Shown here in pieces: positions 5,125 through 24,000 of a DNA stretch of 24,000 bases (position 1 is the stretch's first letter; each line of letters starts with the position of its first letter). This DNA is from Anaerosoma tenue (lineage in GTDB: Bacteria > Actinomycetota > Coriobacteriia > Anaerosomatales > Anaerosomataceae), in the NCBI RefSeq assembly GCF_023161965.1, contig NZ_JALNTY010000002.1, positions 188,552-212,551 on the forward strand, read 5' to 3'. The notes beneath the pieces are model-generated. The model was not told the DNA's origin. It ran no database searches and saw only the letters and a program-made list of their open reading frames with translations. The position numbers and the translations under genes were made by a program.

Positions 5125-5192
5125 ACGCATCTGCAACGCAGAAGCCTGCATCTGGCACACTGTTCACAACCAACCCGCCGAAAGGGGCGCGT

Positions 5193-7707: not shown

Positions 7708-7744
7708 TCTGAACATACGTTCGATACCGACGGGAAGCGTGTCA

Positions 7745-9055: not shown

Positions 9056-9083
9056 GCCGACTTCAGCAGCTGTCACGAGGTCG

Positions 9084-9461
9084 ATGAAGGGGAATCGCGG
9101 GCGTGATACCAGGCCCGAGGTAGAGCTTCGGCGCCTACTGCGCGAGGCGGGATTCCCCGGCTACCGGCTCCACTGGAAGAAGGCTCCCGGCCACCCGGAC
9201 ATCGCCTACCCTGGCCGCAAGGTCGCGATCTTCGTGAACGGCTGCTTCTGGCACCGTTGTCCACACTGCAAGCCGCCACTTCCGAAGTCACACGTCGATT
9301 ACTGGCAGAAGAAGTTCGACCTGAACGTGGAACGGGACGCCCGCAAGACAGCGGAGCTGGAGGGTGCGGGATGGACGGTGGTCACGGTATGGGAGTGCCA
9401 GCTGCAGCAGGAGCCGCGCTCGGTCATAGCACGACTCTCAAGGATCCTGGACCCCTCTTAG
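9084..9461 (+). CDS. vsr: Very-short-patch repair endonuclease (Vsr)
   Basis: Frame of ORF 8955..9461. Sequence: MKGNRGRDTRPEVELRRLLREAGFPGYRLHWKKAPGHPDIAYPGRKVAIFVNGCFWHRCPHC...GWTVVTVWEC. The start is uncertain. In-frame TTG 9039 (17-nt overlap with dcm) would add ...AAVTRS, and the RS preceding M matches the usual Vsr N-terminal RSxxM pattern. Confidence 0.88.
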   Translation: MKGNRGRDTRPEVELRRLLREAGFPGYRLHWKKAPGHPDIAYPGRKVAIFVNGCFWHRCPHCKPPLPKSHVDYWQKKFDLNVERDARKTAELEGAGWTVVTVWECQLQQEPRSVIARLSRILDPS

Positions 9462-10822
9462 GAGTCTCTGTTCGTGACGAGCTGCCGCGCCATGTAGCGC
9501 TGGTTCAACCAGAAGGAACGACGCACCGCACGCCCTCCAGAAGGCGTTGGGAGGGTATCCTGGGCGTTCCTGCCGTGGGGCCGTACATGACACATCTCCT
9601 CGTCTGCTGATCTCGGAAGATAGTCCAACTTGTCCTCTCGGATGAGGTCCACGGTGGCCTCGAAGCACTCCCGGGCATGTGTGTCGACGTCTCTAATGGG
9701 CGGCGTCCAGAACTGGGTTCTCAGCAGGCGGGGTACACCATCCGCGCCCAACTGATAGATGACGAAGAAGAACCTTCGTGTGAGATTCTCTCGGAGATCC
9801 GAGTCCTCCCAGTTCTGACCGATCAGGTCGAGGTAGCTGAACGCCTTGAAGGACACGGCCTCCTTTGGCACGCTATCAGGTCTCAGCCGTATCGTCCGCA
9901 CGATGATGTCGGCCTTCTCGAACTCAGCGATCTTCCTGTCGGGCTCAACGCCGAGGATGCGTTTGGTCAGAAGATGGTAGAAGGCCTTCGCGCTACGGTT
10001 CACTCGTACATCCAACTGCTCCGCAATCTCAGGCGCCGTCATGCCGATGAACGGTCTGAAGCGTTCATGGACCACGTCCTCGAGAGTACGCCCGGACCTG
10101 AGCTCATCGGTGGAGACCGCGGACTGCATCTCCAGACTCTCCTCGATGACCGAGTTCATGTAGCTCGCCTTGAAGGAGAATGCTCTAGGCTTGGCAGGCT
10201 CGGCGGAGTGAGGCTGACTACGTCGATCGCTGCCTTTCGAACCCTTCGTGCAGGCGGCGAGGTACATCGTGTCGCCCTCGGACAACTCATGTGCTCGACC
10301 GTCACGGATCTTCGCGACGATGGCCTCCCAGTCGTCACGGATGATCTCGAGGTCCTCCTCTGGGGGCGACCAGAGCCGCGCAATCTTGAACACGTAGTCG
10401 AGCGGTGCGCGGCCCTCTTCCCAAAGGTAGATCATGAGCAGGAGAAGGTCGTTCTTCGACTTGAAGGAGCTGCTCTCCCAGTTCTCGCCGCAGACCACAT
10501 CGTAATCGATCATCTGCAGCACGAGTCGTTCCTTCGCCCGAAGCCTCTTGCCGACACGCTTCACCGGCGTCGTCTTCAGCTCGACACCGGCTTCGGTGAA
10601 GTCAGGCTCTGAGATGTTACCTGGGTTGATTCCGAAGTATCCACGCTCGACCAGGTCTCCCAGTCCACCCTTGCCGGCACCCGACTGATACGTGATCTGC
10701 TGGTCACCTGGAAGAAGGTCCCTGAGGCAGTGCCCTACGAGGCGCTTCGCATATGCCTCGATCGAAGCAGGGTCCGACGGGTCGTAGTCCCGCTGGTGCG
10801 CGACCATTGCTCTCCTTCTCAT
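9458..10822 (-). CDS. Type II restriction endonuclease, Sau3AI / MutH family (454 aa; GATC specificity predicted by family)
   Basis: Frame of ORF 9458..11314. Start moved to ATG (complement of 10820..10822), with SD GAGGGGA 6 nt upstream. MutH-type catalytic region EPDFTEAGVELKTTP...KERLVLQMIDY. Strong collinear similarity to Sau3AI as I recall that sequence: DWEAIVAKIRDGRAHELSEGDTMYLAACTKGS, PRAFSFKASYMNSVI, MCHVRPHGRN, RRSFWLNQRYM. The upstream 164 codons of the track ORF are antisense to yegP. Confidence 0.9.
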   Translation of the reverse strand: MRRRAMVAHQRDYDPSDPASIEAYAKRLVGHCLRDLLPGDQQITYQSGAGKGGLGDLVERGYFGINPGNISEPDFTEAGVELKTTPVKRVGKRLRAKERLVLQMIDYDVVCGENWESSSFKSKNDLLLLMIYLWEEGRAPLDYVFKIARLWSPPEEDLEIIRDDWEAIVAKIRDGRAHELSEGDTMYLAACTKGSKGSDRRSQPHSAEPAKPRAFSFKASYMNSVIEESLEMQSAVSTDELRSGRTLEDVVHERFRPFIGMTAPEIAEQLDVRVNRSAKAFYHLLTKRILGVEPDRKIAEFEKADIIVRTIRLRPDSVPKEAVSFKAFSYLDLIGQNWEDSDLRENLTRRFFFVIYQLGADGVPRLLRTQFWTPPIRDVDTHARECFEATVDLIREDKLDYLPRSADEEMCHVRPHGRNAQDTLPTPSGGRAVRRSFWLNQRYMARQLVTNRDS

Positions 10823-10942
10823 CGTGGTCCCCTCAACGAACCACACGCGTCGAAGATGCGCAAATCGCAACTGACACAGGAGCCCGCCCCCCCCTCCCTT
10901 CGGGTACGTACCTGACATAGCCCTCTCCCGAAAGGAGCCGTC

Positions 10943-11284
10943 ATGCCAGGCAAGTTCGTCCTTGCGCTCGCCAAGAACGGCGAGTTCACCTTCAACCTCA
11001 AGGCAGGCAACAGCCAGACGATTCTCACCAGCGAGACCTACAAGGCGAAGAAGAGCGCACTCAACGGCATCGAGTCGGTGCGCACCAACGGCGTGATGGA
11101 CGAGCACTTCGAGCGCCGGGTCGCCAAGGACGGTCGTCCGTACTTCGTGCTCAAGGCCAGCAACGGCCAAGAGATCGGCCGCAGCCAGATGTACGCTTCG
11201 AGCGCTACCATGGAGAAGGGCATCGCCTCGGTGAAGAACAACGCGCAGAACGCCGTGGTGGAGGACACCACCGTAGAAGCGTAG
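10943..11284 (+). CDS. yegP: YegP / DUF1508 (UPF0339) tandem-domain protein (113 aa)
   Basis: Two repeats of the DUF1508 signature: FTFNLKAGNSQTILTSETYKAKKSALNGIESVRTNG and YFVLKASNGQEIGRSQMYASSATMEKGIASVKNN. SD AAAGGAG (10931..10937) lies 5 nt upstream. Confidence 0.9.
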   Translation: MPGKFVLALAKNGEFTFNLKAGNSQTILTSETYKAKKSALNGIESVRTNGVMDEHFERRVAKDGRPYFVLKASNGQEIGRSQMYASSATMEKGIASVKNNAQNAVVEDTTVEA

Positions 11285-11352
11285 GGACGCGTTGCATCTG
11301 CATACGGCGCGCATGACCCGCCTGACACGTCCGCGCCCGCGAGAGGACCGCT

Positions 11353-12369
11353 GTGAGCCTACGCCTGCTTGAGTTCGTGGTCCGGCCAGACCGGGTCGAA
11401 GACATCACCGCGCTGCTCGAGGACAAGAACATCCACCATATGTGGGTGACCGAGTCGAACGACTCGTCCGCGGCCGTCAGGATCCTGCTCGATGCGGAGG
11501 CCGTCGAGGAGATCACGGATCTGCTGGCCGACCGCATGGGTCGCGATGAGGATCACCGCATGGTGCTGGTCGCCGTAGAGGCAACGGTACCGCGCATCGA
11601 AGAGCCGCCCGAGGAAGAGGCCGAAGAAGAGTCGGCCGAAGAGAAGGAGAAGCGCGCCCTCCGGATCAGCCGCGAGGAACTCTACGAAGACCTCAAGTCG
11701 GGCACCCGGCTCACCCCGTCGTACGCAGCGATGGTGGCGCTCTCCACGGTGGTGGCGGCTGTGGGCCTCGTGAGCGGTGATGTGGCGATAATCATCGGCG
11801 CCATGGTCATCGCCCCGCTCCTCGGTCCCACGATGGCGCTGGCGTTCGCCAACACGCTGGGCGACACCGCGCTCACCAAGGGTGCCTTGAAGACGATGGC
11901 GGTGGCGTTCGCCATCGCGGCGGCGATCTCGCTCGCGCTCGGCGTGATACTCGATGTGGACCCCGCAGCGCCGGAGATCGCCTCGCGCATCGGCGCCGGG
12001 TTCGGCAACATCGCGCTCGCGCTCGCGGCGGGCGCGGCAGGCTCGCTGGCGTTCACCACCGGCGTGCCCGCAGCGCTGGTAGGCGTGATGGTTGCGGTGG
12101 CGCTGCTCCCGCCGCTCACCGCCGCGGGTCTCCTGGCGGGTGACGGCCATCTCCAGCAGTCGCTCGGCGCACTCTTGCTCCTGGTGACCAACGTCGCCTC
12201 GATCAGCATCGCGGCGATGGCCACGTTCGCGATACAGCGCGTGCGGCCCCGTACCTGGTGGGAGGCCGAGCAGGCCACCAAGGCGCGCAGGACCGCGATC
12301 ATCGCCTGGGCGATCACGCTGGCGATCCTCGCCGCGATCATCGCGTTCGGGCAGGTTTCGGCGGTCTAG
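11353..12369 (+). CDS. DUF389 / TIGR00341-family membrane protein (338 aa)
   Basis: GTG start, with GAGAGGA at 11341..11347. Soluble N-terminal ~70 aa, Glu-rich linker EEPPEEEAEEESAEEKEK, then a hydrophobic domain with DVAIIIGAMVIAPLLGPTMALAFA and VMVAVALLPPLTAAG, typical of DUF389. Confidence 0.85.
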   Translation: MSLRLLEFVVRPDRVEDITALLEDKNIHHMWVTESNDSSAAVRILLDAEAVEEITDLLADRMGRDEDHRMVLVAVEATVPRIEEPPEEEAEEESAEEKEKRALRISREELYEDLKSGTRLTPSYAAMVALSTVVAAVGLVSGDVAIIIGAMVIAPLLGPTMALAFANTLGDTALTKGALKTMAVAFAIAAAISLALGVILDVDPAAPEIASRIGAGFGNIALALAAGAAGSLAFTTGVPAALVGVMVAVALLPPLTAAGLLAGDGHLQQSLGALLLLVTNVASISIAAMATFAIQRVRPRTWWEAEQATKARRTAIIAWAITLAILAAIIAFGQVSAV

Positions 12370-12387: not shown

Positions 12388-12843
12388 GTGACTTCTGCGC
12401 AGCGGAACGGGGACCTGCGAGCCTGGCTTGCACGGCTCGCCGTGGGCGCGGTCTTCGCCGTGAACGTACAGAGCGCGGTGGTGTTCCTCGCGTATCCCGG
12501 GCGCTACGCTCCCGGATTCGAACTCGCGGGAGTGGCGGGCGAGGCGGCCGTGCGAGGCCTTGGCGTCGCCTTCCTGATGTGGAACGCCACCTATCCCCTT
12601 GTGATCTGGCGTCCGCGGAGGCACCGCACGCTCTTTGGCGTCGTGCTCGCACAGCAGGCGATCGGCCTCCTCGGCGAATCGTGGATCCGGGCGACGCTGC
12701 CATCGGGACACGCCACGCTCGCCGCCGGGATCGAGCGATTCATCCTCTTTGATGCCATCGGACTTCTTGTGATGCTCGCCACATTCATCGCCCTCGGCGG
12801 TGATTCAAGCCAGGCGGATGGGGATACCATCAAGGAAAGCTAA
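12388..12843 (+). CDS. Hypothetical 4-TM membrane protein (151 aa); I recognise no family
   Basis: GTG start 7 nt after SD GGAGGGG (12374..12380), 18 nt after the DUF389 stop. Four hydrophobic segments: LARLAVGAVFAVNVQSAVVFLAY, AAVRGLGVAFLMWNATYPLVIW, TLFGVVLAQQAIGLLGESWI, FILFDAIGLLVMLATFIALGG. Coding status rests on SD, spacing and operon context only. Confidence 0.7.
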   Translation: MTSAQRNGDLRAWLARLAVGAVFAVNVQSAVVFLAYPGRYAPGFELAGVAGEAAVRGLGVAFLMWNATYPLVIWRPRRHRTLFGVVLAQQAIGLLGESWIRATLPSGHATLAAGIERFILFDAIGLLVMLATFIALGGDSSQADGDTIKES

Positions 12844-12865
12844 GCCTGCGACGGAAGGGGTGCAC

Positions 12866-13624
12866 GTGGACAGTGATTCCCGCTTCAAAAGGCTTCGGAT
12901 CTACAACATCGTGATGGGGTTGTTCCACCTGGGTCAGGGCGCGGCCATCATGGCGCTTGCCGAGCCGTACGCCATCCAGGTGACGGCATCGTGGTTGAGC
13001 GTGCGCCCGGGTCCCGGCGTGTACAGCCCGCCGCAGGAGTACTTCCAGTTCGACCTCGGTATGGGGGTGGCGCTCTTCCTGTTCTTCTCGGCGCTGGCGC
13101 ACTTCGTGATCGCCGGTCCGGCGTACGCCAAGTACGTCGAAGGCCTGAAGAACAACCACAACTACTACCGCTGGATCGAGTACGCGTTCAGCTCGTCGCT
13201 GATGGTCATCCTCATCGCATCGCTGGTGGGCATCACCGACATCGCGGCGCTCACCGCGATCTTCGGCGTGAACGCGTCGATGATCCTTTTCGGCTGGCTG
13301 ATGGAGAAGTACGAGCAGCCCGGCAAGCCCGACTGGACGGCGTTCATCTTCGGCTGCATCGCGGGAATCTTCCCGTGGATCGCTATCGCCGACTACCTGT
13401 GGGGCCCCGGCGCAAGCGACATGACCCCCACGTTCGTGTACTGGATCTTCGTGTCGATGTTCGTGTTCTTCAACAGCTTCGCGGTGAACCAGGTGTTGCA
13501 GTACAAGCAGGTGGCCAAGTGGAAGGACTACCTCTTCGGCGAGGCCACGTACGTGTTCCTGAGCCTCACCGCCAAGTCGCTCCTGGCCTGGCTCGTGTTC
13601 GCTAACGTGCTCATCCCGCAGTAG
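12866..13624 (+). CDS. Heliorhodopsin (252 aa)
   Basis: Frame of ORF 12800..13624. Start placed at GTG 12866, 5 nt after GGAAGGGG (12853..12860); GTG 12860 is possible. Full-length collinear match to the heliorhodopsin family: GLFHLGQ, ALAHFVI, YRWIEYAFSSSLMVILIA (counterion Glu, codon 13178..13180), FGVNASMILFGWLMEKY, FGCIAGIFPWI, FFNSFAVNQVLQYK, LSLTAKSLLAW (retinal Lys, codon 13574..13576). Confidence 0.93.
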   Translation: MDSDSRFKRLRIYNIVMGLFHLGQGAAIMALAEPYAIQVTASWLSVRPGPGVYSPPQEYFQFDLGMGVALFLFFSALAHFVIAGPAYAKYVEGLKNNHNYYRWIEYAFSSSLMVILIASLVGITDIAALTAIFGVNASMILFGWLMEKYEQPGKPDWTAFIFGCIAGIFPWIAIADYLWGPGASDMTPTFVYWIFVSMFVFFNSFAVNQVLQYKQVAKWKDYLFGEATYVFLSLTAKSLLAWLVFANVLIPQ

Positions 13625-13675: not shown

Positions 13676-13741
13676 TGCGCGTGCCGCGAAGTGGCCGCGC
13701 CCTGGCTTCGCCACACGCCCCGCTCGTCGTACCATGGACGC

Positions 13742-14779
13742 ATGCCAGCACCCGCGCCCGACATCCGCACACTCCTCCCGCCACGCTCGGTGGTGCTCGG
13801 CCCGATGGCCGGGGTGACCGAGGCGCCGTTCCGCGGCATCTGCAAGCGCATGGGCGCCACCCTCACTTACACCGAGATGATCAGCGCCAAGGGGCTGCAC
13901 TACAACCCCGACTCCCGCGTCTCCCGTGAGCTGCTCACGTTCGATCCCGCCGAGGCGCCCTGCGGCGTGCAGCTCTTCGGCTCGGATCCCGCGATCATGG
14001 CCGACCGGGCCGCCTGGGTGTGCGCCGAGTACGGCGACGACGTGGCGCTCATCGACATCAACATGGGCTGTCCGGTCACCAAGGTGGTGAGCAACGGCGA
14101 GGGCAGCGCCCTGATGCGCACGCCGGAGCTGGCGGCCGAGATCGTGTCCCGCGTGGCTGCGGCTGTGCCGGTGCCGGTGACCGCCAAGTTCCGCGCCGGC
14201 TGGGATGCCGACGAGATCAACGCCGTGGAGTTCGCCAAGACGATGGAAGCCGCCGGCGCAGCGGCGCTGTGCGTGCACGGGCGCACACGCAAGCAGTTCT
14301 ACCAGGGCGCTGCCGACTGGGACGTGATCGCGGCCGTGAAGACCGCTGTGGACGTTCCCGTGATCGGCAGCGGCGACGTGTTCTCCGCCACGGATGCGGC
14401 GGCGATGCTGGAGCGCACCGGGGTGGACGCCGTGATGGTGGCGCGCGGCGCGCAGGGCGACCCGTGGATCTTCCGCGAGGCCCGCGCGCTCCTGGACCGC
14501 GGCGAGACCCTCCCACCGCCCACGCCGCTGGAGCGCGTGGAAATGGCGCGAGAACACGCCCGGGCGCTCGTGGCGTTCGCCGGCGAGCATGCCGTGACAC
14601 GCATGCGCAAGCACATCGGCTGGTACATCGTGGGCATGCCAGGCGCGCGCCACGTTCGCGAGCGTGTGAACCACGTGACCACCTCGGCAGAGCTGGATTC
14701 GCTCCTCGGGGAATATGAGGGGTATCTTCAGCACACCGGCAGCACTGACGATGCGGACACCTCACATGACGAAGCGTAA
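13742..14779 (+). CDS. dusB: tRNA-dihydrouridine synthase (DusB-like, 345 aa)
   Basis: Frame of ORF 13691..14779. Start at ATG 13742; the GTG at 13691 lies immediately after the terminator and is unlikely. Motifs: VLGPMAGVTEAPFRGI, DINMGCPVTKVV (catalytic Cys), AKFRAGW, LCVHGRTRKQ. There is no SD. A TACCAT at 13728..13733 could mean a leaderless mRNA. Confidence 0.9.
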   Translation: MPAPAPDIRTLLPPRSVVLGPMAGVTEAPFRGICKRMGATLTYTEMISAKGLHYNPDSRVSRELLTFDPAEAPCGVQLFGSDPAIMADRAAWVCAEYGDDVALIDINMGCPVTKVVSNGEGSALMRTPELAAEIVSRVAAAVPVPVTAKFRAGWDADEINAVEFAKTMEAAGAAALCVHGRTRKQFYQGAADWDVIAAVKTAVDVPVIGSGDVFSATDAAAMLERTGVDAVMVARGAQGDPWIFREARALLDRGETLPPPTPLERVEMAREHARALVAFAGEHAVTRMRKHIGWYIVGMPGARHVRERVNHVTTSAELDSLLGEYEGYLQHTGSTDDADTSHDEA

Positions 14780-17399
14780 GGACCTCAGCAGCGGCATACC
14801 CGCACTCGACCGCGTCCTCGAAGGTGTGTGGGCGGGCGACAACATCGTGCTGCAGGTGGACGACATCGCCGATTTCCTGCCCTTCGCGCACCGTTACTGC
14901 GAGTACACGCGCAACGCTGGCCGCAAGCTCGTGTACTTCCGTTTCGCCGACCACGAGCCGCTCCTGCCGGAAGGCCTTCCGGCCGAGGTGCACGAGCTCG
15001 ACCCCTCGGCAGGTTTCGAGCAGTTCATCTCCGAGATCCTCACCGTGATCGACCGCAACGGCCACGACGCCGTGTACTACCTCTTCGACTCGCTCTCGGG
15101 CCTGGCGGTGGACTGGTACTCCGATCGCATGCTCGGCAACTTCTTCCGGCTCACGTGCCCCTACCTCTTCGACTACGACACCGTGGCGCTCTTCATGCTG
15201 CTGCGGAACGTGCACACGCCGCTGGCGACGCGCGCGATACACACCACCGCGCAGATCGTGCTCGATATCTTCCGGCACAAGGACGAGCTCTACATCCTGC
15301 CGCTCAAGGTATGGGAGCGGCGCTCGCCCACGATGTACATGCTGCACTCGTGGATCGGCGATGAGGTCCGGCCTGTCACCCGGAGCGTGGAGCTGGCCGA
15401 GATACGCACGTCCATGCCGCAGCCGTGGATTGACCCCAGCGTGGAATGGCGCGATCCGTGGACGAGCGCGTTCGCCGAGGCGCGCGAGGTGCAGGAGCGG
15501 CTGCGGGCGGGAGAGGCGGCGCCGGGCGAAGAGAAGGCTCATGTTCAGCGGCTGGTGCGCATGCTGCTCAGCCGCGACGAGACCGACGACGTGTTCGGCC
15601 TGTGCCTGGAGCACTTCGGGCTCGACGACCTGCTCGCAATCGGCAAGCGCATGATCGGCACCGGCCAGATCGGCGGGAAGTCGGTGGGGATGCTGCTTGC
15701 GCGGAAGATCCTCGAGCGGACGAAGCCGGATCTCGCCGGGCGCCTGGAGGTGCACGACTCGTTCTACGTAGGCTCCGACGTCTTCTACAGCTACCTCGTC
15801 CTCAACGACTGCTGGTGGGACCGCTACCGCCTCAAGGGCGCCGAGGACCTCTTCGACCGCGCGCGCGACCTGGAATCGCGCCTGCGTACCGGCGCCTTGC
15901 CGCCGGTGGTGCTCGAACAGTTCCGCGAAGTGCTCGAGTACTTCGGCCAGTCGCCGGTCATCGTGCGCTCGTCGAGCCTGCTCGAAGACGCGTACGGCAA
16001 CTCGTTCTCCGGCAAGTACGAGAGCGTTTTCTGCGGCAACCAGGGGAACCCCGAGGAGCGTCTTGCCGATTTCATCGAGGCCGTGCGCACCATCTATGCG
16101 AGCACCATGAGCGAGGAGGCGCTCTCCTACCGGCTCCACCGCGGTCTCATCCACCGCGACGAGCAGATGGCGCTTCTGGTTCAGCGCGTCTCAGGCGAGT
16201 TCCACGGCGACCTCTACTACCCCCACATCGGCGGCGTGGGTTACTCGTTCAACCCGTACGTGTGGCACAAGCGGATCGACCCCGCGCAGGGCATGCTGCG
16301 CCTCGTCTTCGGCCTGGGCACGCGCGCAGTGGACCGTCACGACGACGACTACACTCGGGTGGTGGCGCTGAACGCTCCCATGCTGCGGCCCGAGGGCTCC
16401 ACCGACGAGATCCGCACGTACAGCCAGAAGGCCGTGAACGTCATCAGCCTCGCCGAGAACGCACACGCACCGCGGAGCTTCGAGGAGGTCCTCGCCGCAT
16501 CGGGCGACCTGCCGCTTGAGATGCTCACCTCGCGCGACCTCGCGCTCGAGCAACGCGCCCGCGAAGCCGGCGTGCACAACGTCTTCTCGGAGGTCCTCAC
16601 CTTCGAAGGGCTGCTGACTCGCACGGCGTTCCCCGCCGAGATGCACGCGATGATGAGCGCCATCGCCGAGGCATACCGCCATCCCGTGGATATCGAGTTC
16701 ACGGTGAACTTCACCGACGACGGTGACTACCTGGTCAACCTGCTGCAGTGCCGGCCGTTCCACTTCGTGGGCGAGCTCACGCACCTGCCCGCGCCAGCGG
16801 ACATCCCGCCCGCCACCGTGCTGCTCAAGACCGCGGGACCGGTGATCGGCCACAGCATGGCGATCGAGGTGGACCGGGTGGTGTACGTGGTGCCCGAGGA
16901 GTACAGCGCGCTCTCCACCAACGACCGGTTCGCAACAGCGAGTCTCGTGGGCCGCGTGATGAACCAGCCCGGCGAGAAGCGGTCGATCGTGCTCGCGGGA
17001 CCGGGCCGATGGGGCACACGGATGCCGGAGCTGGGAGTGCCCGCCATGCTCTCGCAGATCAAGAACGCCACGGTGCTCTGCGAGGTGGCCGAGATGCACG
17101 CCGGCCTCAACCCCGACCTCTCGCTCGGCACGCACTTCTTCAACGATCTCGTCGACCTCGGCATCCTCTACATGGGCATCAAGCCGGGAAGCACCGGGTC
17201 GCTCCTCAACGCCGACCTCCTCCAGGGGCTCCCCAACGCCCTCGGCAGGATCATCCCCGAGGCGTCCGACAAGGGCGATCTCGTGCGCGTGATCGATGCC
17301 GAGGACCTCGACGGCCGCTCGATCTGGCTGTGGTCGGATGTGCTCGAGCAGCGCGCGATCGTCTTCGTGTCGGACCGCTGCGAGGTGCGCAGGCCGTAG
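14766..17399 (+). CDS. PEP/pyruvate-binding (PPDK_N ATP-grasp) domain protein with a degenerate RecA/KaiC-like N-terminal domain (877 aa)
   Basis: Frame of ORF 14715..17399. Start uncertain: ATG 14766 is preferred (14-nt overlap with dusB), with ATG 14751 or 14715 possible. The central region carries the PPDK_N signature VIVRSSSLLEDAYGNSFSGKYESV and HPVDIEFTVN...LLQCRPF. I see no phosphohistidine swivel motif (G-G-x-T-S-H-A-A type); the C-terminus has GPGRWGTR and SLGTHFFNDLV. Confidence 0.85.
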   Translation: MTKRKDLSSGIPALDRVLEGVWAGDNIVLQVDDIADFLPFAHRYCEYTRNAGRKLVYFRFADHEPLLPEGLPAEVHELDPSAGFEQFISEILTVIDRNGHDAVYYLFDSLSGLAVDWYSDRMLGNFFRLTCPYLFDYDTVALFMLLRNVHTPLATRAIHTTAQIVLDIFRHKDELYILPLKVWERRSPTMYMLHSWIGDEVRPVTRSVELAEIRTSMPQPWIDPSVEWRDPWTSAFAEAREVQERLRAGEAAPGEEKAHVQRLVRMLLSRDETDDVFGLCLEHFGLDDLLAIGKRMIGTGQIGGKSVGMLLARKILERTKPDLAGRLEVHDSFYVGSDVFYSYLVLNDCWWDRYRLKGAEDLFDRARDLESRLRTGALPPVVLEQFREVLEYFGQSPVIVRSSSLLEDAYGNSFSGKYESVFCGNQGNPEERLADFIEAVRTIYASTMSEEALSYRLHRGLIHRDEQMALLVQRVSGEFHGDLYYPHIGGVGYSFNPYVWHKRIDPAQGMLRLVFGLGTRAVDRHDDDYTRVVALNAPMLRPEGSTDEIRTYSQKAVNVISLAENAHAPRSFEEVLAASGDLPLEMLTSRDLALEQRAREAGVHNVFSEVLTFEGLLTRTAFPAEMHAMMSAIAEAYRHPVDIEFTVNFTDDGDYLVNLLQCRPFHFVGELTHLPAPADIPPATVLLKTAGPVIGHSMAIEVDRVVYVVPEEYSALSTNDRFATASLVGRVMNQPGEKRSIVLAGPGRWGTRMPELGVPAMLSQIKNATVLCEVAEMHAGLNPDLSLGTHFFNDLVDLGILYMGIKPGSTGSLLNADLLQGLPNALGRIIPEASDKGDLVRVIDAEDLDGRSIWLWSDVLEQRAIVFVSDRCEVRRP

Positions 17400-17402
17400 C
17401 GC

Positions 17403-18689
17403 TCAGATGTCGCTCTTCTTCATGCCGAGGGCGGCCGCCATCGCCTCGGCAGTCGCCTCCACTTGCGGCGCCGTGAGGTGGCGCGTCTCGATCACCACGT
17501 GCTTGGCGTCGAAGTCGCCCCAGTCGTCCGTGAGGATCGTGAGGCCGAGTTCGGCGGCACGATCGTAGAAGTCGGTGCCGGGGAACGGGCACGTGTAGGA
17601 GAGGTAGATGCGCGCGCCGAGCTCGTGCACCTCGGCCATGAACTCCAGGCTCTCCCGGAGCGTCTCGGGCGTGTCGTCCGGGAACGGGATCATGAAGGAG
17701 CAGACGGCGTCGATGCCGCACGCCACCGCAGCGGCGACCGCATCACGCACCTGCTGCTTCTCGATGCCCTTCACCGAGTCGAGCACGGTCTGCGAACCCG
17801 ACTCCACGCCGAACTGGATGCCGGTGCAGCCGGCCTCGGCCATCTGCCGGATGAGATCGGCGTCCACGAGGTCCACGCGTGTGGCGCAGCCCCACTCCAC
17901 CGGGTGCTCGAGCGCGCCAAGCGCCTCCAGCAGCTCGCCGATCCAGCGGCGGTTGAGCGTGAAGATGTCGTCGGTGAAGAAGACCTCGTCCACCCCGTGC
18001 TCGCGCCACAGATCGGCGATCTCGGCGGCGATGCTCTCCGGCGAACGCATGCGGCGACGCCCCTGCCAGAGCGAGGAGGCCGAGCAGAACGGACAACGGT
18101 ACGGGCAGCTCCCCGTAGCGGTGAGCACGTTCCACTTGTCGTGGTAGAAGTCCGTGGGGAACAGCCACCGCGCCGGGCGCGGCAGGTCATCGGGATGGCC
18201 GAGCTCGGCGCGCGGGTTCACGTGCGGCGCGTCGTCCTCGATGAAGCCGAGGCCCGGAACGTCGGCCAGGCTGCCCTCACCGCGGACCACGTTGCGCGCG
18301 AGCGCCACCATCGCGTCCTCGCCCGGGCCGGCCACGATGAAGTCCACCGCGTCCCGCTCGGCAAGGACCTCCTCGGGCAGGATGGTGGGATGCGCGCCGC
18401 CGATCACCACCACTGTCTCCGGCGAGCGCTCCTTGATGTGCCGCGCGATCTCGAGCGCCTGCGGGTATGTCTCGGTCATGGCCGAGATGCCCACGATGCG
18501 GGGACGATCGTTGGCCAGGATGCTGTTCACCCTCACCAGGTTCAGCCCGCTCACGTTGAAGTCGACCGCGCTCACGGAGAAGCCGTCCTCCATGAGCGCA
18601 GACGCGATGTAGGCGAGACCCAACGGAGGGCTCAGCCGTGCGTGCTCGTTCCTCTTGCGAACGGGCGCGTTGACCAGCGTCACGTCCAT
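17403..18689 (-). CDS. B12-binding-domain radical SAM enzyme (428 aa), substrate unknown
   Basis: Full ORF. N-terminal cobalamin-binding-type domain (PPLGLAYIASAL...IVGISAMT...VVVIGGAHPT) and radical SAM motif GSCPYRCPFCSAS. GGCGGGA lies ~4 nt upstream of ATG (complement of 18687..18689). Confidence 0.9.
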   Translation of the reverse strand: MDVTLVNAPVRKRNEHARLSPPLGLAYIASALMEDGFSVSAVDFNVSGLNLVRVNSILANDRPRIVGISAMTETYPQALEIARHIKERSPETVVVIGGAHPTILPEEVLAERDAVDFIVAGPGEDAMVALARNVVRGEGSLADVPGLGFIEDDAPHVNPRAELGHPDDLPRPARWLFPTDFYHDKWNVLTATGSCPYRCPFCSASSLWQGRRRMRSPESIAAEIADLWREHGVDEVFFTDDIFTLNRRWIGELLEALGALEHPVEWGCATRVDLVDADLIRQMAEAGCTGIQFGVESGSQTVLDSVKGIEKQQVRDAVAAAVACGIDAVCSFMIPFPDDTPETLRESLEFMAEVHELGARIYLSYTCPFPGTDFYDRAAELGLTILTDDWGDFDAKHVVIETRHLTAPQVEATAEAMAAALGMKKSDI

Positions 18690-18725
18690 CAGGTCCCGCC
18701 TACATCCATGCGCCTTGTGAGCGCG

Positions 18726-19166
18726 TTACTCTTCGGTCTCGGATACGGCCTCTTCGGCCCCCGCGTCCGGGTCCTTGTACGGTGCCACCTGGATCGAACG
18801 GGTCATCAGTATCTCGCGTACCCTTGGGGCCACGATACCGAACGGTTCTCCCGCGCGCATCTCCTCGGCGATGGCGTCCGCCAACTCCTCGTCCTCCAGG
18901 ACCTCCCGGACCCACGTCTGGAGCGCGCCCAGATCGATGTAGCCGATCGTCTCCTGGTTGTTGGGCCGGATCGCCTCCTCATACGTACCGATCTTGAGGA
19001 AGCTTGCCACCTGGGCCAGCGAGTAGAGCGCCACGGGGTTCGAACCGCCCATCACCGACATCTTGAGTCCGGTGATGCGCTCGTCCTGTCCGACCTCGCG
19101 GAGCAAGCGCTCCGCGAGCTCAGGCGACGGCTGTGTCAACTCACGTGCCACGGTGCGTTCCTCCAT
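18726..19166 (-). CDS. Hypothetical acidic protein (146 aa), translationally coupled to the AOR gene
   Basis: Frame of ORF 18726..19169. The minus strand reads ...TCGTGATGGAG: AOR stop TGA (19168..19166) overlaps ATG (19166..19164), and a GTG start at 19169 is also possible. Product MEERTVARELTQPSPELAERLL...DPDAGAEEAVSETEE. I recognise no family. Confidence 0.65.
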   Translation of the reverse strand: MEERTVARELTQPSPELAERLLREVGQDERITGLKMSVMGGSNPVALYSLAQVASFLKIGTYEEAIRPNNQETIGYIDLGALQTWVREVLEDEELADAIAEEMRAGEPFGIVAPRVREILMTRSIQVAPYKDPDAGAEEAVSETEE

Positions 19167-21241
19167 CACGAGCCGAGCTTGCCGGCGGCCTCGAGGTCAT
19201 CGGCCACGTGCGAAAGACCGAGCTCCTCGAGCGTGGCGCGGGTCGGCCAACCGGTGGCCGGGTCCCAACCTTCGAGGGTGTAGAACTTGGTCTTCCACTC
19301 CTCGACCTTGTCGCGGTCGAGCATGCGGCCCACGGCGCTCTCGTACACCCACTGGCCGTCCTTGTACATCGGCACCACGTACGGGACCTCGTAGGTGGTG
19401 TAGCCGGGCACAGCGCCGACCTCGTAGTTGTAGTCGGTGAAGACCTCGAGCTCGCGATCGCGGCCCTGGAGGATCCAGATGGCCCGGTCGAGGTTCCAGA
19501 TCTTGCGGCCGACCTCCATGCCCTCCTCGAACGACTGGTCGATGCCGGTGACGGCCTTGTAGAACTTGGGCTCGCCCTCGCCGGTCATGCCGCGGCCCTC
19601 GGGGCCGTACTCGTTGAAGAAGTCGCCCCACGCCCAGTCGCACAGTGCCAGTGACTGCTTGTAGTAGCGGGTGTAATGGCGGTGCCACGCCACCAGCTTG
19701 GCCATCGACTCCGAGTAGATGCCCTCGTCGCTGTAGTCCATCATCATCGGATCATTGTACGGGCTGAGCTTCTCGCCCATGATCTCCGCAAGCTGGTCTG
19801 CCGAGCAGGCCGGCTGTGCGCCGAACAGCGCCGAGATCGACGGCGCCCAGAACACGAGCGTGTTGAAGTCGTGCTCGTTGATATCACGGTCGCCCACGAG
19901 CGAGCCGTAGCCCCACTCCACCTCGGTACGGGCGTCGTAGTGCTGCACGTAGCCGTGGCACTGGAGCGGCAGGATGCCGCTCGCGGTATCCTGCTCGTAG
20001 CGTCCCCACTTCTCCGCGGCGTACGCGACGCCTTCGTGGAGCGCCTCGCCCACGTCGTAGCCGTTGGCCATCATGTCGAGGAACTGCTTGGCGAATTCGG
20101 CGGTGCCGAGCTGGTTGAAGTCGAGCGCGGTGTCGATCTCCAGACCCGGGCCGAGGATGCCCTCCTTGTGGAGGTTGTTCAGCCAGATGATCGCGCCCTC
20201 GGCCTGATAGGAGTTGATGCCGTAGCGCTGCAGCGCCTCGGTGGCGTCCAGGATGTGCTGGGTGTAGCTGCCGTGGGCCGCCTGGTCGTACACGTGGTAG
20301 AAGAAGTAGTCCACGCACGACGAGCCGTTGCTCGCGGCGCTTGCGAAGCGTGCGCGGCAGTTCTTGTGGCAGCCGAGACACCCGATCGGGGACTTCGGCT
20401 GGTCGGCAGGACCATAGCCCGCGGCGCCAGAGGCCGGGGCGCCACCGAACATCGACCCCATGCCCAGCGGCGTGTAGTCCTCGTCGAGGTGGCCCGCCAC
20501 CGCATACTCCATCGACCACAGACGTGCATCCATGAGCGCCTTGGGGTCGGCGATCTCAACGGAACCGGTGCCGAGCACGCTGATGGCCTTCAGGTTCTTG
20601 GCGCCGAACACGCCACCGAAGCCACCCTGGCCCGCGCCGTTGCCCGCGTCGTGGATGAGCGCCGCGGTCCGGCTGAGGGTCTCGCCCGCCTTGCCGATAG
20701 TGAGAACGGCCGGCCGCTGCGTGGTGCGCTCCTTGCCCAGCTCGCGCCACTCCTTTTCTTCACCGTTCTGCACGATGCGCCAGATCTCTTCCTGCGCCTC
20801 CACCGCGTCGAGGCCCCAGAGGCCCTCAGCGCTCTTGAACTCCACCTCGCCGTTGCGGATGTCGATCCACACCGGCTCGTCCGCTGCGCCTTCCACGGTG
20901 AAGCCGTCCCAGCCCGCCCACTTCATGTGACCGCAGAACCGGCCGCCGAAGTTCGAGCGGGTGAAGTACTCGATCGGGTAGCCCTGCACGCCGATTCCCT
21001 GGACCTCGGTACGCCCCGAAGCCGCCGGGACCAGAGTGCCGGAGAACGGCGACGCCATGATCGTCACGACGTTCTTGGGATCGAAGCCGGAGACGGTCTT
21101 GTCTTCGCACAGGTCCCAGAAGACCGCTGAACCCATGCCGTGCCCGCCGCCGTACTCCTGGTACTTCTCGCTATCGAGGGTCGAGACCGACTTGTTCGTC
21201 AGGTCGATCCTCAGGATCTTCCCGGTATATCCACCAGCCAT
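19166..21241 (-). CDS. Aldehyde:ferredoxin oxidoreductase (AOR) family tungsto/molybdopterin enzyme, long YdhV-like form (691 aa)
   Basis: Full ORF, with SD AGGAGG 8 nt upstream. AOR N-terminal domain: MAGGYTGKILRIDLTNKSV..., GGRFCGHMKWAGWDGFTVEGAADEPVWI, GGFGGVFGAKNLKAISVLG. [4Fe-4S] motif CLGCHKNC (CxxCxxxC). C-terminal FYTLEGWDPATGWPTRATLEELGL. No N-terminal signal peptide. Confidence 0.93.
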   Translation of the reverse strand: MAGGYTGKILRIDLTNKSVSTLDSEKYQEYGGGHGMGSAVFWDLCEDKTVSGFDPKNVVTIMASPFSGTLVPAASGRTEVQGIGVQGYPIEYFTRSNFGGRFCGHMKWAGWDGFTVEGAADEPVWIDIRNGEVEFKSAEGLWGLDAVEAQEEIWRIVQNGEEKEWRELGKERTTQRPAVLTIGKAGETLSRTAALIHDAGNGAGQGGFGGVFGAKNLKAISVLGTGSVEIADPKALMDARLWSMEYAVAGHLDEDYTPLGMGSMFGGAPASGAAGYGPADQPKSPIGCLGCHKNCRARFASAASNGSSCVDYFFYHVYDQAAHGSYTQHILDATEALQRYGINSYQAEGAIIWLNNLHKEGILGPGLEIDTALDFNQLGTAEFAKQFLDMMANGYDVGEALHEGVAYAAEKWGRYEQDTASGILPLQCHGYVQHYDARTEVEWGYGSLVGDRDINEHDFNTLVFWAPSISALFGAQPACSADQLAEIMGEKLSPYNDPMMMDYSDEGIYSESMAKLVAWHRHYTRYYKQSLALCDWAWGDFFNEYGPEGRGMTGEGEPKFYKAVTGIDQSFEEGMEVGRKIWNLDRAIWILQGRDRELEVFTDYNYEVGAVPGYTTYEVPYVVPMYKDGQWVYESAVGRMLDRDKVEEWKTKFYTLEGWDPATGWPTRATLEELGLSHVADDLEAAGKLGS

Positions 21242-21292
21242 GTGGCATTCCTCCTGGTCTGTTGGTCGTCAGGTGACTCGTACGTGGTCCTG

Positions 21293-22054
21293 CTAGTGGC
21301 CGGTCGGTGCCGGGGCCGCCGTCGCCACGGGCGCGTATGACCCGTCGTCTTCGGTCGGCAGGCCGAGAAGGGCCCATGCCACGTTGTCGTCGCGCAGGTT
21401 CACCTGGTAACCCGTATCGGTCTGCGCGGGGATGTCGCTCACAAAGCTGATCGCGCGGGTGGGGCACACGGCCACGCACGCCTGCTGGCCGCCGACGCCG
21501 CCCTCTTCGGTCATGTACGGGGTGTCCTTGCACAGGTCGCACTTCTGCGCCTTGCGCTTCTTGGGATCCCACTGGACGCGCGACGGAGTGAACGGGCACG
21601 CCTCGATGCAGCGCTCGCAGCCGATGCACTTGGCCTGATCCACCGTGCGCACGTTGCCGTTGTCGGGATCTGCGTGCATCGCGCCCGTGGGGCACGCCTC
21701 GGCGCAGTACGGGTGCGGGCACTGCCTGCACTGCTCCTGGACGACGCTGTCCTCTTCACCATACGCAGCGAAGACGTTGTTGATGACCTGGATGCGCGAG
21801 AGCGAGAGGCTCGTCTCACCGGAGTGCACGAGCGAGCAGGCGAGCATGCAGCTCGCGCAGCCGGCGCACTTGTGGGTGTCGACGACGAGGTAGCCCTCGG
21901 AAGCCGGGACCGCGAACACGCTGTCCGGCAGGAAGAAGCTCTTGACCATGAAGCCGCCCGCGAGAGCCCCGATACCTACACCGCCTGCTCCTATGAGGAA
22001 CTGCCGGCGTGAGTAGCCCTGGCCCTCGGTCGTCTTGATATCGTTGTCCGCCAT
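21293..22054 (-). CDS. Tat-signal 4x[4Fe-4S] ferredoxin-like electron-transfer subunit (DmsB/HybA/YdhX type, 253 aa)
   Basis: Frame of ORF 21293..22087. Start at ATG (complement of 22052..22054), with SD GAAAGGA 9 nt upstream. Twin-arginine motif SRRQFLIGAGGVGIGALAGG. Four Cys clusters: CAGCASCMLAC, CRQCPHPYCAEAC, CIGCERCIEAC, CDLC...CVAVC. Confidence 0.9.
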   Translation of the reverse strand: MADNDIKTTEGQGYSRRQFLIGAGGVGIGALAGGFMVKSFFLPDSVFAVPASEGYLVVDTHKCAGCASCMLACSLVHSGETSLSLSRIQVINNVFAAYGEEDSVVQEQCRQCPHPYCAEACPTGAMHADPDNGNVRTVDQAKCIGCERCIEACPFTPSRVQWDPKKRKAQKCDLCKDTPYMTEEGGVGGQQACVAVCPTRAISFVSDIPAQTDTGYQVNLRDDNVAWALLGLPTEDDGSYAPVATAAPAPTGH

Positions 22055-22089
22055 GTGGAGATGTCCTTTCAGATATCGTCCGCGCACCC

Positions 22090-22938
22090 TTACTCGGGCG
22101 CGTCTCCGGTCTTCGTGAGGCGCTTGTACCAGCCGGCGTGCTCCTTCTTGGCCTGCTCCACCGACACGTAGCCGGTGAACATGCTCTTGAGCACCGGCCA
22201 GCTCATCGGCAGGATCGCCGCGAAGAAGACGTGGGCGAGGAAGAAGGCGAGCATCGCGATGGTGGAGACGTCATGCACCAGCGTCGTGGCGCCCATGAGG
22301 CCCGCCGGCATGTCGACCACGTGCGCGAGGGCCTTCAGAAGCCCGGTCACGATGATCAGCACCGTGGAGGCCAGGGCGAGGATGTAGGCCATCTTCTCGC
22401 TCTCGAAGTACTTGTCCTCGGGCGGCATGGTGCAGCTCTTCACGCCCAGGAGGTGTCCGTAGTGGTTCTTCGTGTACTCCCAGAAGTCCTTGGTCGGCAG
22501 GTGCTCCTTGAAACGGTGCGCTGAAAGAAGTGTGTTCGCGCCGTAGTAGAAGGTGCCGAACAGGAACATCACCACGAAGACGAAGTGCAGGTTCATCATC
22601 GCCCAGGTCCACGTGCCGCTTGACACCAGACGCGGGACGAACAGGAACCCGAGCGCGATGCCGGTGACGAGCAGCATCATGGTGCCGATGCCGTGCGTCC
22701 AGTGCTCGAGGATCGCCGCGCCGTCGTGGCGCAGCACCTTGTCCCCTTCGATTCGCGGGTCCTCCCGACGGGTGAGCCCCGCCGCGAAGATGCCCACCAG
22801 CGGTGCTGCGAAGACCAGCCACCAGCCGGAGTCGAAGAGAAGCTCGGAGCCGTCGGTTGCCGCCACCTGCCAGGCGTAGACCGCTCCGACCGCGAACACC
22901 AGCGCCAGAATGACGCTTGTGAGCGCGCGTTTACTCAT
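22090..22938 (-). CDS. Membrane b-type cytochrome subunit (FdnI / Ni-Fe hydrogenase cytochrome b / YdhU-PhsC-like, 282 aa)
   Basis: Frame of ORF 22090..22974. Start moved to ATG (complement of 22936..22938), with SD GGAAGGGG 7 nt upstream. It has ~5 TM helices. Conserved-looking His residues: VLRHDGAAILEHWTHGIGTMMLLVTG, MNLHFVFVV, LVHDVSTIAMLAFFLAHVFF. Confidence 0.8.
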   Translation of the reverse strand: MSKRALTSVILALVFAVGAVYAWQVAATDGSELLFDSGWWLVFAAPLVGIFAAGLTRREDPRIEGDKVLRHDGAAILEHWTHGIGTMMLLVTGIALGFLFVPRLVSSGTWTWAMMNLHFVFVVMFLFGTFYYGANTLLSAHRFKEHLPTKDFWEYTKNHYGHLLGVKSCTMPPEDKYFESEKMAYILALASTVLIIVTGLLKALAHVVDMPAGLMGATTLVHDVSTIAMLAFFLAHVFFAAILPMSWPVLKSMFTGYVSVEQAKKEHAGWYKRLTKTGDAPE

Positions 22939-22974
22939 GCGCACACCCCTTCCCCTGATCTCGATTGCAGGCAT

Positions 22975-23060
22975 AGATGTATCTGCCGGGCCTGCTGCTC
23001 CTTACATTGACCGTCTGGCGACAGTTAGTGTCAATCTCTCAATAGTTGATAGTTGGAGGC
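22975..23060 (-). promoter_or_regulatory. AT-rich candidate promoter/operator region of the cytochrome b-FeS-AOR operon
   Basis: Locally AT-rich patch. The minus strand carries TTGACA (complement of 23029..23034). Inverted repeat ATTGAC (23006..23011) / GTCAAT (23030..23035), and tandem direct repeat ATAGTTG x2 (23042..23055). The -10 is only weak (GTCAAT at 17-nt spacing). Confidence 0.35.
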
Positions 23061-23155
23061 GCTACCACCTCTGAGCAGGGAATGTCGCCTTCGGTGGCGC
23101 GGTCACCGTGGGTCCCGGTGTCATCCCTGCGGCTGTACGGCGTCTCTCAGGCCGG

Positions 23156-24000
23156 CTACGCCAGTTTCACGAGGCCGAGCCGCGCCGCCTCCTCGCTGAC
23201 GATCGCGTCGACCCGGGCGGCGCTCAGATGCCGTGTCTCCATCACGAGATGCTTGGCGTCGTACTCACCCCAGTCGTGAGTGAGGATCGTGATGCCGAGT
23301 TCGTCCGCCTGTTCGTAGAAGGCCGTCCCCGGATAGGGCGTGGTGTACGACATGAGGATCTCAGCGCCCTCGTCGCGCAGCTGTCCGATGAACGCGAATG
23401 TCTCGCGCAGCGTCTCTTCGGTATCATCCGGGAACGGCACCATGAACGAGGCCGTGGTCTTGAGCCCCGCCGCCACCGACCACCGCACCGCGTCGAGCGC
23501 GACCTGCTTATCGATGCCCTTGACCGAGTCGAGGATGGTCTGCGACCCCGACTCCACGCCGTACTGGATGCCGGTGCAGCCATGGACGGCCATGAGGCCG
23601 ATCAGCTCCTCATCGACCTTGTCGACCCGCGTGCCGCACCCCCACTCCACGGCCCCGCCGAGCCGCTCCATCTCGCGCATCAACTCCACGACCCAATCGC
23701 GCCGGAGCGTGAAGATGTCGTCCACGAAGAAGACGAAGCTCGCGCCATAGTCGCGCACCAGCAGTCCGATCTCATCCACAACGGACTTGGGTGAGCGGGG
23801 GCGGTGACGCCCGCTCCAGATGTGCGACGCCGAGCAGAACGGACACCGGTACGGGCATCCGCCTCGGGCGGTGAGAACGTTGAACGCATCGGCATAGAAC
23901 TCAAGCGGCAGCAGGTCACGCGCGGGCAGGCTGAGGGTGTCCGGGTCGAGCAAAGCCCGTCTGGCGTTCTCGACGATCTCGCCCGTTGGCGTCTTCCACA
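23156..24000 (-). CDS. B12-binding-domain radical SAM enzyme, paralog of 17403..18689; C-terminal ~281 codons, with the 5' end beyond the window
   Basis: The track ORF 23156..23953 begins at an internal TTG. The frame stays open to position 24000 (…WKTPTGEIVENARRALLDPDTLSLPARDLL…). Radical SAM motif GGCPYRCPFCSAS. It is collinear with the other paralog to the C-terminus (GCTGIQYGVESGSQTILDSVKGI, FMVPFPDDTEETLRE, DWGEYDAKHLVMETRHL). Confidence 0.9.
   Translation of the reverse strand, partial: WKTPTGEIVENARRALLDPDTLSLPARDLLPLEFYADAFNVLTARGGCPYRCPFCSASHIWSGRHRPRSPKSVVDEIGLLVRDYGASFVFFVDDIFTLRRDWVVELMREMERLGGAVEWGCGTRVDKVDEELIGLMAVHGCTGIQYGVESGSQTILDSVKGIDKQVALDAVRWSVAAGLKTTASFMVPFPDDTEETLRETFAFIGQLRDEGAEILMSYTTPYPGTAFYEQADELGITILTHDWGEYDAKHLVMETRHLSAARVDAIVSEEAARLGLVKLA

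Follow-up and report, generated by a model that had tools for sequence, protein, structure and literature searches.

Anaerosoma tenue (Actinomycetota; Coriobacteriia; Anaerosomatales) carries, on the minus strand of a 24,000-nucleotide (nt) stretch of contig NZ_JALNTY010000002.1 (assembly GCF_023161965.1, positions 188,552 to 212,551; hereafter the window, in whose coordinates positions are given), a compact locus in which a cytochrome b, a four-cluster iron-sulfur (FeS) protein and a catalytic subunit of the AOR family of pterin enzymes are encoded by three head-to-tail open reading frames running from 22938 to 19166. The locus is a member of a recently published class and not a new kind of system: the initial annotation of this DNA had implied that the arrangement was novel, a view overtaken by the description of the same architecture in June 2026 as the Class V WORs (PMC13328260). 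On balance, and by a modest degree, we consider it probable that the locus encodes an extracytoplasmic donor:menaquinone redox-loop enzyme, that is, a membrane-bound respiratory module of the YdhV/Class V WOR type. What is new is the size and coherence of the branch to which it belongs, its FdnI-type anchor, an orphan small protein and a conserved partner from the B12-binding radical SAM (rSAM) enzymes. The retention of a cysteine ligand, of a signal for twin-arginine translocation (Tat) and of an FdnI-like cytochrome b (in monoderms and archaea) narrows the possible chemistry, and these features speak for a redox reaction outside the cell that is linked to the quinone pool and is probably not aldehyde oxidation. 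The features of the locus are listed below.

22090-22938, minus strand: dihaem cytochrome b membrane subunit, 282 residues (PF01292)
21293-22054, minus strand: WorS-type 4x[4Fe-4S] electron-transfer subunit with Tat signal, 253 residues (16 Cys, Fer4_11)
21911-22054, minus strand: twin-arginine signal region, residues 1-48 of the FeS protein (...GYSRRQFLIGAGGVGIGALAGGFMVKSFFLPDSVFA), from the translation
19166-21241, minus strand: catalytic AOR/WOR-family subunit (WorL) of YdhV/BamB type, 691 residues (AFOR_N and AFOR_C)
20315-20317, minus strand: codon of Cys309, predicted protein ligand of W/Mo (translation GSSCVDY and alignment)
18726-19166 or 19169, minus strand: orphan acidic small protein, 146 or 147 residues, isoelectric point 4.4 (conserved open reading frame)
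17403-18689, minus strand: B12-binding (class B) rSAM enzyme, 428 residues, the last co-oriented gene of the cluster (Pfam)
23156 to beyond 24000, minus strand: second, paralogous B12-rSAM gene, of which only the C-terminal part lies in the window (open frame)
22939-23155, minus strand: 217 nt of intergenic DNA before the cytochrome b gene, by position a likely promoter or regulatory region

The initial annotation had described a 691-residue AOR without a signal peptide, a 4x[4Fe-4S] protein with a Tat motif and a cytochrome b. All three are open reading frames on the minus strand where it had placed them, and the intergenic gaps read from the sequence, 35 nt between the cytochrome b and FeS genes and 51 nt between the FeS and AOR genes, are the values it had given. 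Its extent of three genes was correct as to those genes and left out the conserved small protein and the B12-rSAM genes. The cytochrome b gene starts with ATG at 22938, just preceded by GGGGAAGGGG, and has an alternative ATG at 22974; the FeS gene starts with ATG at 22054, with AAAGGA just before it, and its protein product starts MADNDIKTTEGQGYSRRQFLIGAGGVGIGALAGGFMVKSFFLPDSVFA. The start of the small-protein gene (GTG at 19169 or ATG at 19166) overlaps the AOR stop codon, GTGATG lying over TGA, and the downstream rSAM gene begins 36 nt past the small-protein gene. The upstream rSAM paralogue sits 217 nt 5' of the cytochrome b gene; the possibility that it is a truncated pseudogene was rejected, its frame being simply open to the window edge. 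The order rSAM, cytochrome b, FeS, AOR, small protein, rSAM recurs in a metagenome locus (L084), where the upstream rSAM protein is full, at 425 residues. The conserved co-oriented unit exceeds three genes, and takes in the small protein and the B12-rSAM genes. A scan of 17000-24000 for sigma-70 consensus sites, promoters and terminators found no site above chance.

The catalytic subunit matches AFOR_N with 161.2 bits (Pfam cut-off 29.8; E 3.4e-47) and AFOR_C with 112.4 bits (Pfam cut-off 27; E 3.5e-32). It begins directly with the conserved N-domain: residue 3 of the solved AORs is matched by its residue 4, which leaves no space for a signal peptide. All of 17 sequences compared, and nearly all of 94, have the [4Fe-4S] cysteines C288, C291, C295 and C534, and in the 1AOR chain their counterpart is the CxxCxxxC motif (CYACPIGC). 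An AlphaFold2 (AF2) model of the protein (pLDDT 83, pTM 0.90) has its best fold match in BamB (4z3w; TM-scores 0.74/0.78), with AOR, FOR and WOR5 at 0.62-0.67. Identity to Escherichia coli YdhV is 26% over the full length (E 2e-46), and the NCBIfam equivalog model for YdhV, NF007354, scores 212.6 bits and does not reach its cut-off of 868; judged by these scores, the enzyme is no orthologue of YdhV. Neighbour joining shows the family of the window AOR as monophyletic, with sequences from Eggerthella metagenome-assembled genomes (MAGs) nested inside it and E. coli YdhV as its sister on a long branch (24-30% identity). The placement of the enzyme outside the clades of known substrate, as initially proposed, is borne out by this family of its own.

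Cys309 of the window AOR aligns with Cys336 of YdhV and is kept in all but one (L034, where it is Ser) of 89 sequences of the family. In YdhV this residue is a metal ligand, shared with Cys322 of BamB and confined to the YdhV and BamB clades, which are also without the second-shell residues of the aldehyde-oxidising AORs (PMC12096430). By alignment, Cys309 is predicted to be the residue that binds the W/Mo atom. In a profile alignment with the solved AORs, which is good only over the N-terminal two-thirds and poor beyond about residue 430, the catalytic second-shell residue Glu313 of Pyrococcus furiosus AOR (PfAOR) aligns with Phe313; for His448 no alignment was obtained. Residues 311-313, beside Cys309, differ between subclades (DYF, ETS, ATV and EGL), which suggests that the substrate pocket may have diversified.

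The FeS protein (N-terminus MADNDIKTTEGQGYSRRQFLIGAGGVGIGALAGGFMV) has exactly 16 cysteines, grouped into four cluster motifs, and matches Pfam Fer4_11 and related models. Its top NCBIfam matches, NrfC, HybA and DmsB, are all below cut-off, and with E. coli YdhX it shares 27% identity. The best sequence matches in the PDB (9mqx_E, 8c0z_C and 6x6u_B) are small subunits of WOR/AOR complexes, and because these are its closest solved relatives we read the protein as a WorS with an added Tat signal. The N-terminus contains SRRQFLIGAG followed by a hydrophobic stretch, and a conserved VPASEGY, after the signal region, would be the start of the mature domain; the peptide may be cleaved after VFA or be kept as an anchor. 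The twin-arginine motif, on which the first account of the locus relied, has been kept by the family: the pattern xRRx[FLIVMAG][LIVMFAT] occurs in 70 of the 76 FeS partners, across phyla and domains, and the six without it are mostly genes cut by contig ends. Several partners from diderms (L050, L058, L063 and L074) combine the twin-arginine motif with a lipobox-like cysteine (for example ...GLGACGKS), which suggests that they may be Tat-exported lipoproteins that replace the cytochrome b anchor.

The cytochrome b matches Pfam PF01292 (Ni_hydr_CYTB; E 5.8e-15), and its best NCBIfam match, the formate dehydrogenase gamma subunit, scores 57.8 bits against a cut-off of 115.85, so that it is not an FdnI orthologue. 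Hydropathy gives six predicted transmembrane (TM) segments, namely two N-terminal extras and a four-helix FdnI-like core, and the charged loops between the predicted helices fit, in our reading of the sequence, an FdnI-like N-in topology. Every one of 37 homologues keeps His79, His118, His222 and His236. In an hhalign comparison with E. coli FdnI (probability 98%, E 2.9e-13, about 200 columns) these histidines fall on FdnI His18, His57, His155 and His169, and the C-terminal cytoplasmic helix is aligned too. Four histidine haem ligands in TM1, TM2 and TM4 (two in the last, 14 residues apart) are the mark of the FdnI type, and the window cytochrome shows this pattern. The same comparison with YdhU gives a probability of 94% and an E of 8.5e-8; by these profiles the cytochrome b is nearer to FdnI of formate dehydrogenase-N than to YdhU.

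Homologues of the window AOR at 53-88% identity number more than 100, each with about 690 residues, and at least 503 AOR loci came from a scan in which every species was represented by one genome. Further analyses used the best 80 of these, which are 46-91% identical to the window AOR; the branch spans 45-91% identity across phyla and domains. The closest among the matches listed is from Coriobacteriia/Anaerosomatales (91%). Bacterial hosts among the best 80 are Bacillota, Anaerolineae, Dehalococcoidia, Desulfobacterota, Acidobacteriota, Planctomycetota, Bacteroidota, Gemmatimonadota and Eggerthella, and the archaeal hosts are two genera, Halodesulfurarchaeum and Methanohalarchaeum. Neighbour content was established by iterated profile searches of all open reading frames in the loci, and counted in the 48 loci with enough flanking DNA. 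The FeS gene is present in 47 of these, a pairing with the AOR gene too regular to be due to chance. The gene content is nested: cytochrome b and rSAM genes occur together in 14 loci, cytochrome b without rSAM in 12, neither in 22, and rSAM without cytochrome b in none (Fisher's exact p = 2e-5 for the association, which is confounded by phylogeny). The cytochrome b is present in monoderm bacteria, one Bacteroidota MAG and archaea, and diderm lineages are without it. Synteny of the three genes, as had been expected, holds in relatives, archaea included, and the cassette is kept across Coriobacteriia, Bacillota, one Bacteroidota MAG, Halodesulfurarchaeum and Methanohalarchaeum. Some genomes have tandem arrays of two or three paralogous cassettes (L008, L009, L016, L018 and L046). 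Regulators and genes for tungstate/molybdate transport, molybdenum cofactor synthesis or the Tat apparatus are not conserved flankers in the window and seven annotated relatives; having no other conserved neighbour, the cassette behaves as a self-contained, transferable unit. The literature held nothing useful on the Halodesulfurarchaeum enzyme or on the function of ydhW, ydhX or ydhU.

Several observations concern single loci or subclades. In L018 (337-10464), and likewise in L008, L009, L016, L046 and L170, two or three FeS-AOR-small-protein cassettes are followed by a single terminal rSAM gene, and the paralogues of the tandem arrays come from different subclades, with different residues beside the ligand cysteine. 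In Halodesulfurarchaeum formicicum (L002/L003, 8541-9161) an HTH_10 regulator with a faint DmsR_N match precedes the cassette, which hints at regulation like that of the haloarchaeal DMSO respiration genes. In a diderm subclade (Desulfobacterota and Planctomycetota) genes for secreted alpha/beta-hydrolases and for proteins of the acetoacetate-decarboxylase family, all with signal or lipoprotein sequences, border the FeS-AOR pair (L073, 6361-7218 and 10110-11093; L062, 2274-3254 and 3309-4127; L051, 3914-4930; L047, 2703-3911; L038, 10107-11027); for that subclade only, they are a possible clue to the substrate, which might be an ester or a beta-keto compound.

The small protein encoded directly after the AOR has no Pfam or NCBIfam match, and is a real, conserved orphan family. 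Homologues follow the AOR gene in 36 of the 48 loci, across phyla; they are 20-40% identical to the window protein and share the invariant residues G41, W85, D92, L95, R123 and Q126. The AF2 model (pLDDT 78) has no fold match in the PDB, and the protein is without an export signal. It is present even in loci without cytochrome b and rSAM, which fits a dedicated assembly or export (Tat) chaperone or a third subunit, the most likely roles. We also considered it as a homologue of YdhW or YdhT, and rejected this, as BLASTP returned nothing and hhalign gave a probability below 1% with each of two profiles.

The downstream rSAM protein matches PF02310 (B12-binding, 91.9 bits) and PF04055 (Radical_SAM, 94.8 bits), and its CPYRCPFC motif (CxxxCxxC; C195, C199 and C202) is invariant. 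No NCBIfam subfamily model reaches cut-off, the best being BchE (165 bits against 481), ApyD and HpnJ; of the sequences in the PDB, AprD4 and 9ccb come closest. Orthologues lie directly 3' of the small-protein gene in 27 AOR loci, including three archaeal genomes. Among six rSAM homologues picked independently of the AOR, at 53-77% identity, four adjoin the cassette (L084, L085, L170 and L171), and homologues at 41% identity or less sit elsewhere in the genome. A metagenome scan with the rSAM profile was of little discrimination, its degenerate patterns being generic: 75 of 80 loci were unrelated B12-rSAM genes at 27-35% identity. The B12-rSAM enzymes would be cytoplasmic accessory factors, acting in maturation. 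In two Bacillota-like loci (L169, 7001-9547; L170, 7001-9550) a cassette-type rSAM gene is followed by the same 410-residue Peptidase_S41-like gene, regardless of whether an AOR cassette adjoins.

Class V WORs consist of WorL, a WorS with a Tat signal and/or TM domain, and other subunits; they make up about 10% of the WOR family, are membrane-associated and presumed respiratory, and are read as periplasmic (Putumbaka et al., Front Microbiol, June 2026; PMC13328260). Their hosts are Enterobacteria, Coriobacteriia (Eggerthella, Gordonibacter, Slackia), Clostridia, Fusobacteria and Desulfobacterota, with Eggerthella among the genera of clade 41, to which the class corresponds in the 92-clade WorL tree of these tungsten-containing oxidoreductases (PMC13328260). 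The sole Class V enzyme tested, CsWOR41L of Cetobacterium somerae, prefers W and oxidised 0 of 46 aldehydes, a weak result since the preparation was without the S subunit, whereas E. coli YdhV prefers Mo (PMC13328260). By its predicted subunit make-up, a WorS with a Tat signal and a cytochrome b with TM segments, the window locus falls within the definition of Class V, with which it shares WorL, Tat-signal WorS, at least one further subunit, membrane association, a presumed respiratory role and occurrence in Coriobacteriia. The term 'radical SAM' is absent from the main text of the Class V paper (PMC13328260), whereas the window locus has B12-rSAM genes; the published class has a YdhW-type 'W' protein to which the window small protein is unrelated; and the window AOR family also spans archaea and many uncultured phyla, beyond the published class. 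YdhV-type (Class V) enzymes occur in gut Coriobacteriia, and the window locus belongs to a very large environmental branch.

Other known systems resemble the locus in part. The initial annotation had likened it to the E. coli ydhYVWXUT operon, and this holds for three of the six genes: both loci have an AOR-like subunit of about 700 residues with a Cys at the metal-ligand position (YdhV, a bis-Mo-molybdopterin enzyme, in E. coli), a four-cluster Tat protein (YdhX) and a PF01292 cytochrome (YdhU). YdhY (a second ferredoxin), YdhW and YdhT are without a homologue, no matching open reading frame being found in the window or in 77 related loci; the gene order also differs, and the window locus has the additional small orphan and two B12-rSAM genes. 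BamB shares with the window AOR the position of the Cys metal ligand and the lack of AOR second-shell residues, and is its best fold match. It is a cytoplasmic part of the complex BamB-I (class II benzoyl-CoA reductase) of about 1 MDa, driven by electron bifurcation, whereas the partner in the window would be exported and quinone-linked, and could therefore not supply the approximately -650 mV for ring reduction; bamC-I partner genes were not found in the window. FdnGHI has the same path from an exported pterin enzyme through a four-cluster FeS protein to a dihaem cytochrome b with the same four histidines, and likewise the C-terminal cytoplasmic helix of the cytochrome and the principle of Tat hitch-hiking. 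Its catalytic subunit has the MopB/DMSO-reductase fold, whereas that of the window locus has the AOR fold; the Tat signal is on the catalytic subunit in FdnGHI and on the FeS subunit here; and, unlike in FdnGHI, the FeS subunit has no C-terminal TM helix and the cytochrome b has two extra N-terminal helices. The P. furiosus enzymes AOR (1AOR), FOR (1B25) and WOR5 share with the window AOR the superfamily, domain order and four [4Fe-4S] cysteines, but they are cytoplasmic and ferredoxin-linked, have about 600-625 residues and no protein ligand on W.

From the gene content and families, the position of the cysteine, the Tat motif, the four haem histidines and the synteny we infer export, quinone coupling and a direction of electron flow, together with the roles given to the small protein and the rSAM enzymes. 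A W- or Mo-bis-pyranopterin AOR with Cys309 as ligand and one [4Fe-4S] cluster would be assembled in the cytoplasm and bind its 4x[4Fe-4S] partner, and the folded pair would cross the membrane on the partner's twin-arginine signal by hitch-hiker export. On the outer face of the monoderm cell the pair would dock on the FdnI-like dihaem cytochrome b, and the complex would oxidise an extracellular low-potential substrate other than an ordinary aldehyde. From there the electrons would travel by way of five FeS clusters and the two haems to menaquinone, whose reduction would take place close to the cytoplasmic side; the whole would be an energy-conserving redox loop in the style of formate dehydrogenase-N. 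We favour the donor:menaquinone direction because FdnI-type cytochromes b normally serve donor-oxidising enzymes; cytochromes b of the PF01292 type with a quinone site on the cytoplasmic side usually do so, as in Fdh-N and hydrogenase-1.

The serious rival is the same module in reverse, a terminal reductase in which electrons would run from menaquinol through the cytochrome b to the pterin site and an extracellular organic or inorganic acceptor, modelled on the PhsABC thiosulfate reductase and on the substrate-specific respiratory reductases of Coriobacteriia; we hold it to be possible, if rather doubtful. Several points tell against a donor-oxidising enzyme, and most of them would suit this reductase. 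The cytochrome b family also serves a reductase, through PhsC of thiosulfate reductase, so that the fold leaves the direction of flow unfixed, and E. coli YdhU is itself regarded as PhsC-like; BamB, the nearest solved relative and nearest fold, is a reductase. The tandem paralogous cassettes in five of the loci (up to three cassettes, in L018) and the subclade-specific residues 311-313 beside the ligand cysteine resemble the expansions of substrate-specific terminal reductases in Coriobacteriia. The DmsR-like regulator by the Halodesulfurarchaeum operon, albeit a faint Pfam match, counts for the reductase and for the preferred respiratory module alike. No Class V WOR has an assigned activity or substrate (PMC13328260). 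The part given to the rSAM enzymes is weakened by the other two of the six independently picked homologues (L168 and L169), which lie away from any cassette, L168 being from the same assembly as an rSAM-less cassette (L166), and by the AOR alignment, in which no column separates the 27 rSAM-linked from 41 rSAM-free genes, so that nothing in it marks out a specific modification site. What speaks against the reductase is that the cytochrome b fits FdnI better than YdhU and has the haem and topology pattern of FdnI, that with a quinone site on the cytoplasmic side outward electron flow would cost proton-motive force, that the quinol-oxidising anchors of periplasmic reductases are mostly of other families, NrfD/PsrC/DmsC, and that the sequence suggests no acceptor.

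We think it improbable that the complex is a classical aldehyde oxidoreductase at the cell surface, detoxifying or harvesting extracellular aldehydes and passing their electrons to menaquinone. The AOR-family fold and [4Fe-4S] motif would suit such an enzyme, the oxidation of aldehydes with quinone is strongly exergonic, and the characterised members of the family except BamB oxidise aldehydes or related compounds (PMC12096430). Aldehyde-oxidising members are, however, without the cysteine at the metal-ligand position, PfAOR Glu313 is replaced by Phe, the profile fits AORs poorly past about residue 430, and CsWOR41L was inactive on the 46 aldehydes, for what that result is worth without its S subunit (PMC13328260). 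Very unlikely indeed is a complex on the cytoplasmic side, or one only tethered by an uncleaved signal anchor, with the twin-arginine motif as a relic and the enzyme working in cytoplasmic metabolism, in one pathway with the rSAM enzymes. These and the small protein have no export signal, and a shared compartment would ease a metabolic link; yet the Tat motif is kept across phyla and domains and has Tat-lipoprotein variants in diderms, the four-cluster FeS protein is of an exported type, an FdnI-like cytochrome b is normally fed at the outer face, and in the published definition of the class the enzymes count as periplasmic (PMC13328260).

More speculatively, the conserved unit may be a self-contained, horizontally mobile cassette of five to six genes, with one or two rSAM enzymes that, ahead of export, install a novel modification on the enzyme, on its pterin or on the cytochrome b; the whole would provide a new respiratory activity shared by Coriobacteriia, Bacillota and halophilic archaea. 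We advance this tentatively. The conserved B12-rSAM partner is in any event a concrete new lead on enzyme maturation. As Halodesulfurarchaeum formicicum, a haloarchaeon with a sequenced genome, and Eggerthella also have the compact cassette, the function of these enzymes can be approached by experiment.

Other genes of the window lie beyond the cassette. An 894-residue protein with a PPDK_N (ATP-grasp-like) domain only (14715-17399, plus strand) is convergent with it and adjoins it in the two closest relatives (L001 and L007), not in more distant ones; because the adjacency is confined to those two, the protein is probably unrelated to the cassette. A heliorhodopsin gene (12800-13624, plus strand; PF18761, E 9e-94), in what seems to be a genome of the anaerobic Coriobacteriia type, lies between genes for a DUF389 membrane protein (11353-12369) and a dihydrouridine synthase (13691-14779). 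A probable restriction-modification/repair island (7679-11314) encodes a C5 cytosine DNA methylase (7679-9055, plus strand), a Vsr mismatch endonuclease (8955-9461, plus strand) and a 618-residue MutH-domain protein (9458-11314, minus strand); it has the lowest G+C of the window (0.60-0.62 against about 0.66), which suggests that it may have been acquired horizontally. Lysine 2,3-aminomutase (radical SAM plus LAM_C) and a GNAT acetyltransferase (1257-3453, plus strand) form the gene pair expected for synthesis of the compatible solute N-epsilon-acetyl-beta-lysine. A full-length haem catalase is encoded at 3554-5233 (minus strand; Pfam E 5e-190), while other genes point to an anaerobic lifestyle.

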